From a virus, in the IMG/VR virus record IMGVR_UViG_3300010885_020237, positions 1 to 64,000 of that record: a stretch of 64,000 nt of DNA. One strand, 5' to 3'. The notes under the pieces were generated by a model. That model did not search any database, was not told the DNA's origin, and was given only the letters and a program-made list of their open reading frames with translations. This document shows positions 1,277 through 57,922 of this stretch, piece by piece. Numbering within the stretch: position 1 is the stretch's first letter; every line of letters begins with the position of its first letter. The position numbers were made by a program, and so were the translations under genes.

Positions 1277-1606
1277 TTATTCTCCTTTTAGGGTCTTCAT
1301 TAACCAACCTGAAATGGCGCTTAATGGTATGATAAAAGATACTACATTTAAATAGGCATTTCTTTCATTGAAGTCAACAGGAATTCTAGCTTCGCCGAAT
1401 CTTTTTTGTAAAGCTACAGAGATTTTATTTGCGTACTCTTGTTTCTTTCTTGGATCTTGTATCTTATCTTTTGGCAATACAAATTGCATGTTTACTCCTT
1501 TCTTTGTGGGAGCATCTGATAGATCGAACTGAAGTGGTAAAGTAACTTTCTCTCCATCTATAGAAAGATTAACTGAGTATCTTGGTGTTGCTAATATATT
1601 TGCCAT
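1277..1606 (-). CDS. hypothetical protein
   Basis: 109 aa ORF; ATATTTAT motif 4 nt upstream of ATG. Confidence 0.7.
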   Translation of the reverse strand: MANILATPRYSVNLSIDGEKVTLPLQFDLSDAPTKKGVNMQFVLPKDKIQDPRKKQEYANKISVALQKRFGEARIPVDFNERNAYLNVVSFIIPLSAISGWLMKTLKGE

Positions 1607-16735: not shown

Positions 16736-16808
16736 GTACTCCCTCAAGGATTCGAACCTCAACAAATTGTACCAAAAACAATTGTACTACCGTTATACTA
16801 AAGGAGTA
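16736..16808 (-). tRNA. tRNA-Gln(UUG)
   Basis: Cloverleaf: TACTCCT/GGGAGTA acceptor, ATTGT-TTTTGGT-ACAAT anticodon arm, GGTTCGAATCC T arm. Confidence 0.9.
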
Positions 16809-17000
16809 ATTTGACACTCTATTTTATCCAACTACAAGTGTCGTGGCTGTCCCTTTTCAGGTTAGGAATAATCATTCGACTTCTCGAGGTTCAGGCTGAT
16901 TTGCCCGGATATTACCACCTATCATATCCTAGGTACCCATACGGGCATCACCTCCGCTTCTCATCATATTGGGCATACTAGTCGGTGATTAATCGACTCG
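16809..17000 (-). ncRNA. unidentified structured GC-rich RNA between tRNA-like unit and tRNA-Gln
   Basis: Nested stems GAGGT/ACCTC, GCCCG/CGGGC, GGATAT/ATATCC; flanking hairpins AGTCG/CGACT and GACACT/AGTGTC; no ORF in the track. Confidence 0.45.
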
Positions 17001-17002
17001 TG

Positions 17003-17084
17003 TAGTCAGGACAGGATTTGAACCTGTAAGCTCCTTTTCGGGTAGGAACAACCTTATTGCGTCTACCAATTCCGCCACCTGACT
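17003..17084 (-). ncRNA. tRNA-like element 1 (Leu-type D arm, no canonical anticodon arm)
   Basis: AGTCAGG TG GCGGAATTGGTAGACGC ... ACAGG TTCAAAT CCTGT CCTGACT A. Confidence 0.75.
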
Positions 17085-17155
17085 ACGAAGACATCATTAG
17101 AATTTTGACCATTACATAGTTTCCTAAGTGTGAATATACTCCGTTGATGTCTTTG

Positions 17156-17230
17156 TAGTCAGGACAGGATTCGAACCTGTAATAGGCAACCATAAAGGAC
17201 TTGGAACCATTCCTCATTACGCTCCTGACT
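17156..17230 (-). ncRNA. tRNA-like element 2 (acceptor and T arm only, unrelated core)
   Basis: AGTCAGG AG...ACAGG TTCGAAT CCTGT CCTGACT A. Confidence 0.7.
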
Positions 17231-17323
17231 ATAAAACTCCACCCCGTAGGTGGAGAGAGCGAATTAAGGTATCGCTTTAAGACAATTTAGTCAACCAGTG
17301 CGCTTACCCTTTGGGTGGCGCTG

Positions 17324-17395
17324 TAGTCAAGACAGGATTCGAACCCGTATTACCACCGTGAAAGGGTGGTGACCTAACCCCTAGTCGATAGGCGC
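17324..17395 (-). pseudogene. chimeric tRNA-Glu(UUC) with non-pairing 3' acceptor strand
   Basis: GCGCCTA...CCACC-CTTTCAC-GGTGG...ACGGG TTCGAAT CCTGT CTTGACT A. The 3' strand is of the AGTCAGG-family type and cannot pair with GCGCCTA. Confidence 0.75.
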
Positions 17396-17782
17396 TGGAG
17401 GAGATGCGGGGATTCGAACCCCGGTCTCCGTAAGTAATCATAATACCCTTCTTACATGCTTAGTCATACTGTACACAGTGACAAGAGTTCGATCTGCAAG
17501 CTGATCAGTATTGGGGTCGTACGGCTACGTACAACTAGGCCACCACTTGGTTTAAGTCCAAGAACTATTTTTGTAACTTACTGTTCCATCCAAGTTACCA
17601 GGAGAAGAAATCTTAAGCTGCTACAGCCATTTCTACATTGGCAAAAGCCATGTTGATAATGCGTGCACCTTCTTCTTGACGAGAAATTGTATTGTCGTTT
17701 ATTTTTTTAGGAGTGGTTTGACGCTCCCACGTCTTGCATGTGATACTACCATTCTCATACGGATCAAATGCCTGTCATCCCC
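17396..17782 (-). ncRNA. ssrA: tmRNA
   Basis: 5' GGGGATG pairs with 3' CATCTCC (G3:U), T arm GGGTTCGAATCCC, encoded CCA; tag ORF 17696-17613 DNTISRQEEGARIINMAFANVEMAVAA*. Confidence 0.93.
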
Positions 17783-32217: not shown

Positions 32218-32883
32218 TTAGGTGTAGTTCCATTTATATCCTCCTGATATTCTATTGTTTTTGATAGCCACGTGAATATTAGAATTGTTTACACCGATAA
32301 AATCTGCAGCTTTTTTTAGCGATTGAAATGTACTAATTATCTCCATCGTATCTTTATTAAGCATATTCACACTTTTTATATTATGAGCAAGTTTTCCGAC
32401 TTTAGATTCTCTTAATCTTCTTATACCGTCTTCTGTCATATTATGAGGTTTTCTTAGTTTCTGTTTTTGTTCCTCTGTTCTTTTTTGACCTTTAACAGCT
32501 AAGCCTACTTTTGCAGCATGTTCTTTACTTTTTTTCTTTCCTTTTAACGCTTTAGATATTGCTTTAGAGTGAGCTAGTCTGGCTTCTTCATAACATCTTG
32601 AAGATATTATAATCCAATGTTCTTTAGGCGTTGATCCTCTACCATTACACATTCTCCAAAAAGAAAAAGCTCTAGATTGAATATTTTCATCTAATCTATA
32701 TAAAAGCCAATGCGCAATAAAATGCTCTCTTGCTGTTAATCTAACTATATTTTCTTCAATATCTAACCCATTTTCTGATTTAGGCTTTATATGATGCCTT
32801 TCGAAGTAAGGTAAAGTTTTATATTCTCTATTTTTAGCTTTATCAATTAGGTTATCGTAATGTTTTCTGTAATCCACTTTCAT
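32218..32883 (-). CDS. free-standing HNH homing endonuclease with NUMOD-type C-terminus
   Basis: ERHHIKPKS..G....N.V.LTAREHFIAHWLL; F.SLKKAA..IG; SGGYKW. Confidence 0.88.
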   Translation of the reverse strand: MKVDYRKHYDNLIDKAKNREYKTLPYFERHHIKPKSENGLDIEENIVRLTAREHFIAHWLLYRLDENIQSRAFSFWRMCNGRGSTPKEHWIIISSRCYEEARLAHSKAISKALKGKKKSKEHAAKVGLAVKGQKRTEEQKQKLRKPHNMTEDGIRRLRESKVGKLAHNIKSVNMLNKDTMEIISTFQSLKKAADFIGVNNSNIHVAIKNNRISGGYKWNYT

Positions 32884-32918: not shown

Positions 32919-35231
32919 CTAATGTCCTTCAAGCCAGTTTTTGGCTAAAGATGGTACAGCAATTAATGGGACGTCCAATTTGGTTGTATTCTCCATTTTA
33001 TCCTGTATAATAGCTGCGGCTTCTGCTGCTCTTTCATATTCTACTTCTATGATTAACTGATCGTGGATTTGCGCGCAGACCCAACCTTTAATGCCTTTTG
33101 CGATAAACTCTCTATTTATATGTATAGCTGCTCTATTTACTATAGATGCAGCTAAACCTTGTATTTGTACATTACAGCTATTATTTAGTCCATTTTTATA
33201 GTCTCTATATAATTTAGTTATTTGATCTTCTCCAAATTCATAAGATAGTTGTTTTTTTATATTCCAATCTAATAAAGAATCCCCTAATTCAGCATATATT
33301 TCTTTTACTTTAGGCAAGTGTCTTATTCTACCTACTTGAGTTTTTATATAACCAAATTCTTTTACATATTTAACTGAATTCTCCATCCATTTTTTTAATT
33401 TTGGAAATCCATTTAAATAACCGTCTACTAATTTTTTAGCATCTTTAGTAGGAATATCTAAATTTTTACCTAAAGCATACGGTGACATTCCATAAGGAAT
33501 ACCTAGAGCATAGGCTTTTGCTTTATTTCTAATTTTTGGTTTGTGTTTTCTTAAAAAATTATCAGCTTTTTTATCTGGAGAATAGTCGTATAATTTTTCT
33601 GTTTGAATAGCTATTGTACAATAGAAATCCCATCCATTTTTAAAGATATCGATTAATCCTATATCACCTGAGACATGTGCAAATACACTCGGCTCTAGAG
33701 AAGAGTAATCATCATCGACAAATATATTGTGTTCATCAGGAATAAAAAATGCTCTAACTCTATTATTATACTCTAATACAATTGGATCATCATCGCCTTC
33801 TTCTTTTGGTCTAGGTAACTGTTGAGCATCAGATCCGTAGCGGCCAGAAACTGTACCATGTTGTTTGTAACTAAAATAGTAACGGCCATCTTCTTGAGCG
33901 TCTAAGAATCTTTCCACATAAGTAGATTTAATCTTTAATAATTTATTATAGATTCTTAAGTTTCTTGCCCATTCTTCTGTATCTCCAATTAATTGGATCA
34001 TGTCATCATCAAATTGTGGCTTTCCACCTTTTGTAGTAGATAATGCTTTTATGCCCAAAGCTTTGAATGCAATTTCACCTAATTGATCTTTAGACTGTAT
34101 GTTAAACCAATTACCGTCATTAGATTCTTTCCATAGTTTTAATTGTATTTTTACAATTTGATCCTTATCAAGCATTTGAGCATCACCGTGAAGTAAGAAC
34201 TGTTTTACTGCGCTATCTGGGATTCTTAAAATATTTGCATTAGCTATATTGTACTTACCACTTTTCTCTGACTTTGGAAAGTCTATACCGCTTTGATTGA
34301 TTAATTCTATGGCAAATGTTCCTCTATTGTTTGCGGGGAATTCCTGCGCCGCTTTTAACATGATCCAGTTCTTTACTTCAGCGTAACTAAGTAACTGATC
34401 CATAACCTTAGTTCTGTGATCCTCTAGAGCTTGTGTAACTTCTTCTTTTGTTCTACGAATAAGATCCATATCCAATTTAACACCTATACTTTCCATTGGA
34501 ATGGTTACCTCTTTGTAAAGTGGCATTACTTCATCTTCAAAAAAGAAGGCTTCTAATCCCTGATCGTAAAGGTCTTTTATAAAGTGATTGTATACTCTAA
34601 GTGTTAAATCTGTATCTGCTGCAGCATATTCGGCTAATATGTTAATATCAGCTTTCCATATCTCGTAATTTTCTCTTGTAACAGAACCACCATTTTCTTT
34701 GATCGATGATTTTAGCGCAAGCTGCTCTTCATTGGCAGCTTTTTCTATATCAAGTCCAAGTTCTGTTTGAATCATTTTAGCAATACTTTTTAATCCAAAT
34801 GGAGAATTGGATCCAAATCCAGCTCCTTCTTCATTTACAGTATGAACTAATAACATTGTATCAGCGTGTAAGGAATCTAACAAATCAATGCCGTAAAAAC
34901 ACTTAATAAATCTGCCATCGAAAGAAAAATTATGAGCGATTAATTTTTTACCATGAAGTAAATTAAGTATTTTTTTAGCTATATCATGACATGATACGCC
35001 GTCTACAGTATTTTCTATAAGAGAATTTGATTCTTTATCATATAATAGTGTAGGCAAATAATATCCATAGCCCTCTATTGCTGATATAGACAGACCTATT
35101 ATTTTTCCTTTTCTAGGATTTAAACTGTTAGTTTCAGTGTCTATTGATATTATGTCATAACTTTTTATATGGTCAACTAGATTTTTGATATCTTCTTTTG
35201 TTGAAACATGTACATACTTTTTATTTATCAT
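32919..35231 (-). CDS. polA: family A DNA polymerase with 3'-5' exonuclease
   Basis: DTET, AHNFSFD, YAAAD; GTVSGR; motif A DYSSLE, motif B RNKAKAYALGIPYG, motif C QIHDQ. Confidence 0.95.
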   Translation of the reverse strand: MINKKYVHVSTKEDIKNLVDHIKSYDIISIDTETNSLNPRKGKIIGLSISAIEGYGYYLPTLLYDKESNSLIENTVDGVSCHDIAKKILNLLHGKKLIAHNFSFDGRFIKCFYGIDLLDSLHADTMLLVHTVNEEGAGFGSNSPFGLKSIAKMIQTELGLDIEKAANEEQLALKSSIKENGGSVTRENYEIWKADINILAEYAAADTDLTLRVYNHFIKDLYDQGLEAFFFEDEVMPLYKEVTIPMESIGVKLDMDLIRRTKEEVTQALEDHRTKVMDQLLSYAEVKNWIMLKAAQEFPANNRGTFAIELINQSGIDFPKSEKSGKYNIANANILRIPDSAVKQFLLHGDAQMLDKDQIVKIQLKLWKESNDGNWFNIQSKDQLGEIAFKALGIKALSTTKGGKPQFDDDMIQLIGDTEEWARNLRIYNKLLKIKSTYVERFLDAQEDGRYYFSYKQHGTVSGRYGSDAQQLPRPKEEGDDDPIVLEYNNRVRAFFIPDEHNIFVDDDYSSLEPSVFAHVSGDIGLIDIFKNGWDFYCTIAIQTEKLYDYSPDKKADNFLRKHKPKIRNKAKAYALGIPYGMSPYALGKNLDIPTKDAKKLVDGYLNGFPKLKKWMENSVKYVKEFGYIKTQVGRIRHLPKVKEIYAELGDSLLDWNIKKQLSYEFGEDQITKLYRDYKNGLNNSCNVQIQGLAASIVNRAAIHINREFIAKGIKGWVCAQIHDQLIIEVEYERAAEAAAIIQDKMENTTKLDVPLIAVPSLAKNWLEGH

Positions 35232-35865
35232 AAATGAATTTTACCTTTATTTTATTTTTATTCCACGTAGAAATTGTAGCTGACGATCTATTAAAAAATT
35301 CAGCTGCATCTTGTATAGTTAAGAAAACAGTGCCAGATTCTATACACAGTACTTTTTGCGCTCTACCATTAGAGGATCCTGATATCTTTTTGGATTGAGT
35401 GATCTTTCTTTCATTAGTCCATAAATCCTGAAATTTTTTCTTATAATCAGCTGTTGCATATTTTATTTTTAATTTATCGCCTAATTCACGAGCGATTTTT
35501 TTATCTTTCATAGGATTATGAAATCTCATAAATTGTGATTGTTCTGGTCTTTTTTTACCAAACATTATACATTTGTCTCCCGATCCAGATCCACTTGCTG
35601 ATGCACATTGCATTGAGTAATATGGCTTTTTAAAAAGTTTATCCAATAAAAGCTGCTCTTGTAAATACGCCTCTTCTCTAGTTGCATATTCATTTAATAT
35701 TTCGTATTCAAACATATTATATTTTAAATACGCTCTTTGCATTATAGAATTTCCATGTGTACCTTTAGTTAATTCTCGAAAATGATCTTTCATTCTCCTT
35801 TTTAAATTATTAGTAGATCCAATTTGTTTCCATGGACCTATTTTAATTTGATATACTACATTCAT
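35221..35865 (-). CDS. GIY-YIG-like homing endonuclease with NUMOD1/HTH C-terminus
   Basis: VVYQI...QIGST.NLKRR..H...L..G.H.N; VLCIESG.VF.TIQDAA. Start moved to MNVVY (35865) by analogy with the 43485 leader. Confidence 0.75.
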   Translation of the reverse strand: MNVVYQIKIGPWKQIGSTNNLKRRMKDHFRELTKGTHGNSIMQRAYLKYNMFEYEILNEYATREEAYLQEQLLLDKLFKKPYYSMQCASASGSGSGDKCIMFGKKRPEQSQFMRFHNPMKDKKIARELGDKLKIKYATADYKKKFQDLWTNERKITQSKKISGSSNGRAQKVLCIESGTVFLTIQDAAEFFNRSSATISTWNKNKIKVKFIYDK

Positions 35866-35969
35866 AAAATAAAAATGGTTCAAAAAAACAAAGGAGCTCT
35901 AACCTTCCTAAGTTTAAATGAACCAATAAGTTTATAACAGATAACTAGTTAGAGTAGTTTCTATCCATT
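35866..35969 (-). ncRNA. kissing-loop 5' leader RNA, copy A
   Basis: P1 GATA-GAA-ACTA[CTCTAAC]TAGT-TATC; P2 GGTTCA..AGGAAG[GTTAGAG]CTCCT..TGAACC; loops exactly complementary. Confidence 0.75.
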
Positions 35970-35984
35970 ATAAATATGCAATCT

Positions 35985-42924: not shown

Positions 42925-43485
42925 TTAATGTAATGCTTTATTTTTTCTTGAAGAAGGGTTTTTTTGCGGTCCTCTTGGGCCTCTCATTTTTTGCTTCGTT
43001 TCTTCTGTGTGAGCATTTCCTATATGCGCTTTAGACATATTTAATTTAGATTGTTCGGTATGAATTCTGCCTTTATGTTTTTCAGAAATTTTTAAACGAG
43101 TTTCTTTTGAACAAGGCGGATATTTTTTGCCTTTATTTCCGGAGCCGCTATTATTTCCTTTTGCTGATAGACGCATTTTATTTTTTGATTCGTTAGAAAA
43201 AATAAAATTAATCATGCCTTCTCCTCCGTCTGTAAGATTTACTAGAGAACCGGTTCCGATATTTTGTCTGCCTAGACTTTTAATAAGTTCGATTTCTATT
43301 ATTCCAGAATCTTCCCAAGACAAATCTTCATAAAGAATATCAATAAAATAGCCTACTTTATTAACTATATTATGCCAATGTACATTTCTATCAGCTCTTG
43401 AAAATGCTCTTTTTAAAGTTTTTCCTCTACCTATGTAGAAAATTTCATTTGTGTCTTTTCTTCTATGCTGATATATTATAGCCAT
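42925..43485 (-). CDS. GIY-YIG (LEM-3-like) homing endonuclease with NUMOD3 repeats
   Basis: IYQH...FYIGRG...RA, E..LI..LGR, LVNLTDGGEG, HTEETKQKM. Confidence 0.8.
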   Translation of the reverse strand: MAIIYQHRRKDTNEIFYIGRGKTLKRAFSRADRNVHWHNIVNKVGYFIDILYEDLSWEDSGIIEIELIKSLGRQNIGTGSLVNLTDGGEGMINFIFSNESKNKMRLSAKGNNSGSGNKGKKYPPCSKETRLKISEKHKGRIHTEQSKLNMSKAHIGNAHTEETKQKMRGPRGPQKNPSSRKNKALH

Positions 43486-43591
43486 AAAATAAAAAAGAAC
43501 TCAGAGGATTCAAAGATCGCGGAATGACCAATGTTTCGTGAGTTCAATAAATTTATTATAGATAGTTAATTCCGCTAACTTTCTATCCACA
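43486..43591 (-). ncRNA. kissing-loop 5' leader RNA, copy B
   Basis: P1 GATA-GAAA-GTTA[GCGGAAT]TAAC-TATC; P2 GAACTCA..GGTC[ATTCCGC]GATC..TGAGTTC; loops exactly complementary. Confidence 0.75.
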
Positions 43592-43610
43592 ATAAATATG
43601 TTCTCCATTC

Positions 43611-44955: not shown

Positions 44956-46257
44956 TTAAAATGAATAATTAATGCCATACTTGTGTTTTACCACTAAGTT
45001 TTCTCCTTCCATTATTTCTTTTATTTTTATTAGAAGTTCTTTTCCATCTTGTATATCGAAGTCGAATAAGAAAGCATCATAGGTGATTAATACAAGCTTC
45101 GTCCTTAGCTTATTGTCATCAAGGTATTGGTTTATACGCTCTATTTTATCTACGTTGACCAGAGTCTCCATATTCTGCACCATGTAATTAAATAGCTTAA
45201 GCTTGTTCATCTCATTTGAGAATTTAAGAATGCTATTAGTAGGTAATGCGATTGCACCTTGTCTTTTGTAGGTTTCCCATAAATCAGTGATATAAGAGTC
45301 TAGTAACGCAAAAAACTTGATGTGAGTGTATTTTTTATTTACTCCTCCGTATAACTGTCTAAAAGTAATTGTTTTTGCCTCAACATATTCATTTTCAGTA
45401 AGGGTGTCTTTACCGAAGTATTGTTTACCAAGAAAGGTATGTATTGATTCTTTTCCCCAATCGTAACCAATTAATGTTCCAATTAATCTTAAGTGATAAG
45501 CTTCAAAATCGAATTCTACAAAATAGGTATTTTTCGGTATAAAGCAGTCTCTAAAATCATTATCTTTTGGTATCGCAAGGAAATTAATGCTATTAAATGA
45601 ATTTGTTGGTCGACCAGTTAGATTATAAAGATTATAATAAGAATAGATAAGATCATTAATTTTAGAACTTGATTCTATGGTTAATTGGTATTTAGTTTTA
45701 AATTTTACCTCATCAATTCTTATTGGATTCTGCTCTACACTTTTATAAGCTGATACCAATCTATTTTGAAATTTAGTGTCTGACTCTAAACCAAAAAATG
45801 CTTTAACAATATCATATAAACATTGGCATCTTTCGTAATGTTTAGATATTGGTATTATCTCATTTACATTTGCTAGATTAGAAAATCTAGAGTAGTAATT
45901 GTGTTGTAATAAGCTTTCACATTCGAATGGACTATAGTTATTGGTTTGATCTAAATAGATAAAATTTATATCTATACTATTAGGCAGGTCTAAAAAATAG
46001 GAGTGATACTTTTTATCTATTAAGAATATGGTCTTATGTTTAGATAAGAACTGTTCTACCGACTTTATATCGAGAGAAAAAGATTCAGAGTGTTTGAAAG
46101 GGAATATATAGCCTTTTACACCGTTATTATAATATAATAGGCTGGGATATGATAGTTTTGGGTGGAATTTATCATTACCTGAAATCAATTGTACAAAGCA
46201 TTCTTCGCCTGCTTGCATTTGATTTAACTGATCTAACGTTTCTACTATAAAATACAT
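44956..46257 (-). CDS. second, truncated family A DNA polymerase-like protein
   Basis: TGRPTN, motif A EFDFEAYHLR, motif B AKTITFRQLYG, motif C ITYDAFLFD. Confidence 0.75.
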   Translation of the reverse strand: MYFIVETLDQLNQMQAGEECFVQLISGNDKFHPKLSYPSLLYYNNGVKGYIFPFKHSESFSLDIKSVEQFLSKHKTIFLIDKKYHSYFLDLPNSIDINFIYLDQTNNYSPFECESLLQHNYYSRFSNLANVNEIIPISKHYERCQCLYDIVKAFFGLESDTKFQNRLVSAYKSVEQNPIRIDEVKFKTKYQLTIESSSKINDLIYSYYNLYNLTGRPTNSFNSINFLAIPKDNDFRDCFIPKNTYFVEFDFEAYHLRLIGTLIGYDWGKESIHTFLGKQYFGKDTLTENEYVEAKTITFRQLYGGVNKKYTHIKFFALLDSYITDLWETYKRQGAIALPTNSILKFSNEMNKLKLFNYMVQNMETLVNVDKIERINQYLDDNKLRTKLVLITYDAFLFDFDIQDGKELLIKIKEIMEGENLVVKHKYGINYSF

Positions 46258-57343: not shown

Positions 57344-57922
57344 CTAGTTTATTTGTGTTTTTAATAATTTCGTTACGTAAGCTTTAGATTTATTTAAATA
57401 TTTTGCTAAAGCCGTCTGTGATTCAAATTCAATTTTGTCGTATACAACCTTTAATCTTTTTGGACTAGCTTTATCTTTCCAATATCCTGGTTTTCCATAA
57501 AGAGGATTTAATTCTCCAACTCTACCAAAACAAGGATTTTTTTCTCCTTTAGAAGCCAAACTCTTTTTTCTTTTTGACTCTTCAGTGTGAATTTGATTTT
57601 TAGCGGCTAATCTACATTTGTCTTTAGTTTCTTTTGTGTGTCTAAATCCAACTGTTCCTTCTCCACCATCAGTCAAATTAACCAATGTTCCAAGTCGTAA
57701 ATCTCGTCTACCGTAAAGAGCTATAAATTCTTTTTCTTTTTCTTTTGCTTGTTCCCAAGTTAAGTCTTCAAATAGAATTTCAATTTCGTAACCTTTTGCG
57801 GCGATATTCTTCCAGATTCTAGTTCGATTTGTTTTATGATATGCTCTAGATTCGCTTTCTCCTATTCCTATATAAAAAACCTCTTGTTTGTCCGTTCTTA
57901 TGTGTCTGTATAATATTGCCAA
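57344..57922 (-). CDS. GIY-YIG (LEM-3-like) homing endonuclease, paralogue of 42925..43485
   Basis: LYRH...FYIGIG...RA, YGRRDL..GTLVNLTDGGEG, HTKETK; TTG start. Confidence 0.8.
   Translation of the reverse strand: MAILYRHIRTDKQEVFYIGIGESESRAYHKTNRTRIWKNIAAKGYEIEILFEDLTWEQAKEKEKEFIALYGRRDLRLGTLVNLTDGGEGTVGFRHTKETKDKCRLAAKNQIHTEESKRKKSLASKGEKNPCFGRVGELNPLYGKPGYWKDKASPKRLKVVYDKIEFESQTALAKYLNKSKAYVTKLLKTQIN

Follow-up and report, generated by a model that had tools for sequence, protein, structure and literature searches.

Two homing endonuclease genes on a 93.7-kb IMG/VR viral contig (~32% GC) are each preceded by a folded RNA leader, in which two successive hairpins, P1 and P2, pair with each other through their 7-nt loops. 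The window analyzed here, i.e., the whole stretch of 64,000 nucleotides formed by positions 1 to 64,000 of record IMGVR_UViG_3300010885_020237, is part of this contig. With slightly better than even confidence, and judging from its anatomy, we take the leader to be a promoter-proximal terminator combined with a translation gate, which would limit nuclease output and which the loop–loop contact would tune or lock.

The closest cultured relative of the window's phage is Flavobacterium phage vB_FspM_immuto; the kinship is distant, and the order of the replication and recombination genes is the same in both. Homing endonuclease A (35221..35865, minus strand, 214 aa, Pfam GIY-YIG 2.7e-7) has a small ORF on one side and DNA polymerase A on the other, its stop codon overlapping the start of the polymerase gene. 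Homing endonuclease B (42925..43485, minus strand, 186 aa) has a GIY-YIG-type N terminus followed by NUMOD3 (Pfam 1.2e-7) and lies between a gp32-like single-strand binding protein (SSB) and a UvsX/RecA-like recombinase. The two nucleases have no detectable similarity (BLASTP E 0.047), in agreement with an initial annotation of the sequence that had described them as other than close paralogues. In vB_FspM_immuto the gap between SSB and recombinase contains no nuclease insertion, and a search of that genome with a covariance model (CM) of the leader gave 0 matches. Upstream of the gp32 gene of the window there is a second family A polymerase-like ORF (44956-46257, minus strand), which is short (433 aa) and found in the same arrangement in the cultured Immutovirus genome, where it is the first annotated CDS.

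The leader occupies the ~95–112 nt before each nuclease ORF, on the minus strand in both copies, at the places where the initial annotation had put them. From 5′ to 3′ it is composed of a ATATTTAT box, four variable bases, P1, a linker, P2, a U-rich tract of ~11 nt, and the ATG. P1 has a conserved start, a GAAA-type bulge, an apical stem of 3–5 bp, and a 7-nt loop. P2 is long and imperfect: its outer stem is GC-rich, internal loops follow, and an apical stem of 4 bp again carries a 7-nt loop. In copy A (35977-35866), the promoter-like box is at 35970..35977, the short form of P1 at 35940..35965 (loop 35954-35948, CTCTAAC), the conserved 15-nt linker at 35925..35939, the terminator-like P2 at 35876..35925 (loop 35903-35897, GTTAGAG), the U tract at 35866..35875, and the ATG at 35865. 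In copy B (43599-43486), the promoter-like box is at 43592..43599, the short P1 at 43561..43587 (loop 43575-43569, GCGGAAT), the terminator-like P2 at 43497..43545 (loop 43525-43519, ATTCCGC), the U tract at 43486..43496, and the ATG at 43485. Within each copy the P1 loop is the exact reverse complement of the P2 loop, and the loop sequences differ between the two copies.

Minimum free energy (MFE) folds return P1 and P2 for both copies, with z-scores of −3.0 and −2.7 relative to shuffles. The same folds lengthen P1 by a basal stem of 13–15 bp, for which the ATATTTAT box provides the 5′ arm and, in copy A, the first 9 nt of the linker the 3′ arm (long P1 at 35974-35931 in copy A and 43597-43551 in copy B). 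The short hairpin originally described as P1 is present, and it may extend by a 13-bp basal stem that includes ATATTTAT and has weak support from covariation. When the 93.7-kb genome was scanned generically for pairs of hairpins whose loops are complementary, 27 were found, versus 11–38 in shuffles, i.e., no wider enrichment, and this genome has no copy of the leader beyond A and B.

To collect homologues, viral contigs and metagenomes were scanned for DNA patterns and then searched with a CM built from nine copies resembling B; the first strict pattern mostly matched unrelated coding sequence. This produced 74 distinct copies. The 7-nt Watson–Crick complement between the two loops is perfect in every one of them (script check of the full set), while a chance 7-mer complement between two such regions is expected ~0.03 times per sequence (an estimate from ~500 window pairs × 4^-7). 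There are 20 different loop pairs among the 74 copies, and all loop positions but one vary. On the CM alignment, 93.8% of the cells are paired versus 79% in shuffles, none of 500 shuffles matches any of five measures, and pairing falls to 33–45% when the partners are slid by 1–3 columns. Changes on both sides of a pair are found in 4/4 pairs of the P1 apical stem, 4/4 of the P2 apical stem, 12/13 of the P2 outer and middle stems, and 6/7 of the kissing helix, the last counted on ~24 of 40 rows because P2 loops of other types than B fall in insert columns. Alignment with MAFFT and RNAalifold mis-registered P2 on this diverse set. The compensatory changes that the initial annotation had seen in the stems of the two copies are thus a property of the whole family.

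Well-aligned stems contain 45 G-U cells and 8 A-C cells. This strand-specific excess shows that the folded strand is the sense RNA. The basal stem of long P1 is weakly supported: it is mostly invariant, with a double change in three pairs, several G-U cells, and several mismatches, and 9 of 16 variant cells still pair (leaving out the pair next to the bulge). Because the promoter-like box lies inside this stem and keeps it mostly invariant, the evidence for pairing there is weak. The conserved unpaired nucleotides are the GAAA bulge of P1 and the linker. The spacing of the loop partners is fixed at 49–52 nt on one molecule, and this favors pairing in cis over pairing in trans. The number of copies per contig ranges from 0 to 6, and loops always differ among the copies of one contig. 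Diversifying selection of the loops for orthogonality was considered and rejected, as this distinctness is not significant (~p 0.1, given how often each loop occurs) and, on the CM alignment, ordinary stems are at least as variable as the loops.

The leader matches no Rfam family; the initial annotation had noted it as an unrecognized motif. Rfam 15 at gathering thresholds, applied to the whole window, returned the tmRNA and three tRNAs only; with a permissive E-value, the 3-kb loci around both copies gave one chance snoRNA match (E 2.2), located elsewhere. The tmRNA is full length (Rfam 68.8 bits) and lies beside the three tRNA-model matches, one of them partial (17396-17782 and 16737-17386, minus strand). 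Full-text searches of the literature found no description of the leader. With a leader as blastn query, no match was obtained among 50,697 records of cultured phages; of 7 pattern matches in bacterial and archaeal genomes, the CM confirmed 0; and in ~1.9 Mb of retrieved loci, a search for the same architecture with other sequences gave nothing convincing. The element is real and uncatalogued, and we read it as a regulatory leader or attenuator that acts in cis on a mobile phage gene, apparently of a known kind.

The association with selfish endonuclease genes, proposed earlier from the two copies, is nearly systematic: 72 of the 74 leaders directly precede an ORF with a GIY-YIG- or HNH-type N terminus, and in this sample the genes that the subfamily precedes are all of nuclease type. 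Among representative ORFs, Pfam identifies GIY-YIG, LEM-3-type GIY-YIG, HNH, HNH_3, NUMOD1, NUMOD3, and I-HmuI NUMOD-like domains. A less biased sample is provided by 160 loci retrieved via gp32 or DNA polymerase instead of nucleases. In these, the CM finds 10 leaders on the sense strand, 9 with a nuclease ORF and 1 as a remnant, plus one weak reverse-strand match that overlaps one of the 10. Near-identical leaders with the same loop pair stand before unrelated nuclease families, which confirms that the RNA is conserved independently of its ORF and indicates that it is a module recombining freely with ORFs. More distant homologues of nuclease B have no leader; hence, its presence is limited to a lineage instead of being a trait of the protein family. 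Two more nuclease genes of the window have the ATATTTAT box and lack the folded leader, which is therefore dispensable for the retention of such genes. The first (57344-57922, minus strand) is paralogous to nuclease B (GIY-YIG/NUMOD3, 47% identity) and apparently starts with TTG; the second (32218-32883, minus strand), of HNH/NUMOD1 type, comes immediately after the DNA polymerase, and its true start may be a GTG 8 nt past the box.

Leader and ORF also move together. Relatives without the homing endonuclease gene (HEG) lack the whole cassette, leader plus ORF, at both window sites, so that the leader travels with the nuclease gene, and other phages carry the cassette at other sites. At the gp32/uvsX junction, HEG-less relatives have a short GC-rich terminator with a T run, 15–20 nt before the uvsX ATG, a gap about as short as that between P2 and the nuclease ATG, and the window, L178, and L206 have the cassette in place of that terminator. 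At the junction between the small ORF and DNA polymerase, HEG-less relatives have ~10 nt and no terminator. The notion that the cassette supplies a replacement for a displaced terminator was rejected on these grounds, being true at site B and false at site A. Downstream of gp32 in the HEG-less L177-L256, there is no recognizable promoter between the terminator and the uvsX start, so that uvsX seems to depend on terminator read-through in this lineage. Two degenerate cassettes were observed. In L265 a solo leader (1438-1556, plus strand), between the large subunit of RNR and two small ORFs, has lost its ORF and is followed by an ATG and then stop codons; the same site in L263 has the leader with an HNH_3 gene. 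In L171 (3285-3374, minus strand) the apical part of P1 has been cleanly deleted; P2 and the U tract are kept, and the HNH ORF after them is truncated.

The ATATTTAT motif does lie just before P1, as first described, but it is not specific to the element. There are 19 ATATTTAT sites on the coding (minus) strand of the window versus 3 on the plus strand (examples from the window scan are 61983, 56776, 44944, 39385, 23781, 22321, 19305, and 1618). Nearly all are intergenic and 4–31 nt upstream of start codons. A near-copy of the motif is also found just upstream of the tmRNA gene. The simplest reading is that ATATTTAT is the general promoter-like box of this phage. At four of the sites the distance to the following ATG is exactly 4 nt, as would be expected of leaderless mRNAs. 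Since the box reads as a general promoter-like element, the predicted transcription start is the first base of P1, i.e., the fifth base after ATATTTAT, which is the conserved G opening P1 (35965 and 43587). In folds, an RNA started at this position by the cassette's own box begins with the short P1, and its linker of 15 nt is single-stranded. A transcript that enters from upstream can fold into the long P1, whose duplex of 13 plus 4 bp is possible in read-through RNA only, and the linker is then of 6 nt.

P2 has the features of an intrinsic terminator, namely a stable stem with a U-rich tract directly after it. Its folding energy is between −13 and −25 kcal/mol (median −20), 61 of 73 copies have a T run of at least 4 after the stem, the U run begins 0–1 nt past the stem, and the stem ends 10–12 nt (about 11) before the AUG in 63 of 73 copies. 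A simple consensus terminator scan missed P2 because the hairpin is long and interrupted. Together, P2 and the U tract look like an intrinsic terminator placed between promoter and ORF, i.e., an attenuator. In MFE folds the U tract is unpaired and the 3′ arm of P1 is ~60 nt upstream of the AUG. The start region of the leader is U-rich, whereas the regions upstream of other start codons adjacent to ATATTTAT in the window are A-rich. Of the three functions guessed at originally, the attenuation or translation switch appears to be the best anatomical fit, given the GC-based P2, the U run, and their position 10–12 nt before the AUG. DNA polymerase and uvsX are downstream of the cassettes and neither has a ATATTTAT box of its own. 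As an efficient terminator at P2 would be polar on the box-less, essential DNA polymerase, P2 must be leaky or conditional, and it cannot be an efficient unconditional terminator.

The reading that we favor can be put as follows. The cassette would be a self-contained unit made of the ATATTTAT box, the folded leader, and the nuclease ORF. P1 would form at or just after the predicted start, and its 7 loop bases would pair with the 7 of the P2 loop. The majority of RNA polymerases would stop at P2, and in RNAs extended beyond it, the AUG would be crowded by the P2 base and by the U-rich start region, which would hinder ribosome loading; either termination or crowding of the AUG would result in low nuclease output. 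The kissing contact might act as a clamp, so that the long interrupted P2 forms reliably. Alternatively, it might compete sterically with closure of the lower P2 stem, similar to what has been proposed for guanidine-IV, where the kissing loop would compete with the full terminator stem by means of a short linker (PMC11611296). The conservation of the linker and of the P1 3′ arm, together with the modest evidence for long P1, suggests that read-through transcripts or a bound factor also matter, which is a point against the simple gate, as it leaves this unexplained.

There is precedent for such control in T-even phages, whose homing endonuclease genes, free-standing or intron-borne, are limited by RNA hairpins in which late promoters are embedded, as well as by terminators; the reviewed cases are I-TevI/II/III, segB, Aeh1 mobE, and the seg43(25) hairpin (PMC2988022). 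Both mobE and segF carry a terminator at the 5′ end, and T-even HEGs are also limited by RNase E sites (PMC2988022). When the promoter is in the 5′ arm of the hairpin, read-through transcripts and own-promoter transcripts fold differently, and in seg43(25) a stable hairpin stops shortly before the ribosome site, which is left uncovered (PMC2988022). As in T-even HEGs, some of which have a terminator at the gene start, the nuclease gene here is behind RNA hairpins, and the embedded promoter would have its counterpart in the ATATTTAT box as 5′ arm of long P1, if the box is a promoter and the tentative basal pairing holds. The two systems also differ. In the present one, a covarying 7-bp loop–loop helix connects two hairpins, the hairpin of the promoter-like box (P1) leaves the start region uncovered, the leader is a conserved portable module common to unrelated nuclease families, and the phages are of Bacteroidota type, without Shine–Dalgarno sites.

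A further role for the kissing contact, which we put forward tentatively and consider unlikely, would be to discriminate transcripts by their origin and to give each cassette a private address. The short and flexibly tethered P1 of an own-box RNA would catch the tip of the nascent P2 and hold the terminator open, and read-in RNA would fold the long rigid P1, whose 6-nt tether precludes kissing, and terminate; the opposite assignment is equally possible. If this were true, the mobile cassette would bring its own RNA device, which would isolate the cassette from host-phage transcription at any site of insertion, and a distinct 7-nt code for each cassette in a genome would avoid cross-talk.

Other explanations have to be weighed against a gate that limits nuclease output. 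The leader could be an element for RNA end formation or stability, or an insulator, that serves the phage and not the nuclease, although this seems to us improbable. P2 would then end the upstream mRNA (e.g., that of gp32), with the kissing fold protecting that 3′ end or the 5′ end of the cassette; alternatively, the long P1 duplex would be an RNase III-type processing site separating the cassette from its neighbors. The replacement of the native gp32 terminator at site B, the persistence of the solo leader of L265 after loss of its ORF, and the long P1 duplex restricted to read-through RNA, with the pairing that survives in 9 of its 16 variant cells, would all be consistent with this. Yet there is no native terminator to replace at site A, the leader almost never occurs without a nuclease ORF, and the invariance of basal P1, with its promoter-like box, gives little weight to the duplex.

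It is slightly more doubtful that the region from promoter to terminator is a discrete small RNA of ~95 nt with a role of its own, either as an antisense-type regulator like P1/P7 c4 or P4 CI, with the loop as private specificity of each cassette, or as a concentration-dependent dimer whose loops pair in trans. A promoter-like box followed by a terminator-like hairpin ~95 nt on is what this would require, and loops always differ within a contig, even where one phage has as many as 6 copies. Kissing hairpin loops of 7 nt with full complementarity are also the format of ColE1 RNA I/RNA II. In P1/P7 c4 and P4 CI, regulator and target are on one RNA and the complementary segments differ between heteroimmune relatives. 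The ColE1, c4, and CI RNAs are trans-acting once processed and determine immunity or copy number; in our element, in contrast, the fixed spacing favors pairing in cis, we know of no processing site, the loops are no more variable than the stems, and their distinctness within genomes is not significant.

A switch sensing a ligand or a protein, i.e., a riboswitch or an antiterminator target that opens the terminator, is very unlikely. The conserved and unpaired GAAA bulge and linker could be the sensing part, and the architecture resembles both lambda PR′–tR′ and guanidine-IV units. In the lambdoid PR′–6S RNA–tR′ unit, which is released by Q, a promoter is followed by a terminator within 100–200 nt and downstream expression needs read-through, much as proposed here. 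However, no Q-like factor or site was found for our element, which is carried by a mobile nuclease cassette, and we know of no kissing loop in the 6S RNA of lambdoid phages. The guanidine-IV riboswitch (mepA motif) is similar in anatomy, as it has a 5′ hairpin and a second hairpin running into a terminator with a poly-U tail, the loops of which kiss. Still, its loops are conserved and their contact depends on the ligand, whereas here there are 20 loop pairs and the contact is presumably constitutive; the gene context also differs. Loops that are hypervariable and fully Watson–Crick paired leave no conserved ligand pocket there, no Rfam riboswitch matches the leader, and no candidate factor was found.

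The initial annotation had also proposed that the leader is an RNA cofactor of the nuclease, akin to HEARO or omega RNA, or a self-processing RNA, and we now regard both as highly improbable. The strict co-occurrence with nuclease genes is the sole point in their favor. A cofactor or guide would not be expected to serve many unrelated nucleases, and the same leader with the same loop pair is found before GIY-YIG and HNH enzymes of several unrelated families, while the paralogue of nuclease B with 47% identity is leaderless. The HEARO/omega RNAs of IscB-IsrB are guides of several hundred nt, unlike this element of ~100 nt with GIY-YIG or HNH/NUMOD neighbors, and HEARO gave no match in the Rfam scans of the window and of both 3-kb loci. 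As for self-cleavage, no ribozyme or omega-RNA model matched, and beyond the GAAA bulge and the linker there is no conserved unpaired core that looks catalytic. Finally, a DNA-level structure (cruciform or single-strand fold) for homing or recombination could explain why the cassette has a long palindrome, P1, at its 5′ edge and why the kissing helix has no G-U at any of its 74 × 7 positions, but it is hardly credible, because the stems take G-U far more than A-C in the strand-specific manner typical of RNA, and because the polarity is always that of the ORF and the element ends in a U tract and ATG.

Under the favored reading of a terminator and translation gate, the leader would answer a general problem of these elements, as HEGs need enough expression to spread and too little to harm the phage that carries them. 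The leader is a candidate for a new Rfam family. Its 20 loop codes are a natural series of orthogonal 7-bp kissing pairs placed beside a putative terminator, of use for studying the effect of loop–loop contacts on termination and a possible source of orthogonal parts. RNA control of HEGs has so far been known from a few T-even examples only. A portable leader of conserved sequence, common to unrelated nucleases and found in many uncultured Bacteroidota-type phages of freshwater and marine origin, suggests that such control may be a general solution that moves with the selfish gene.
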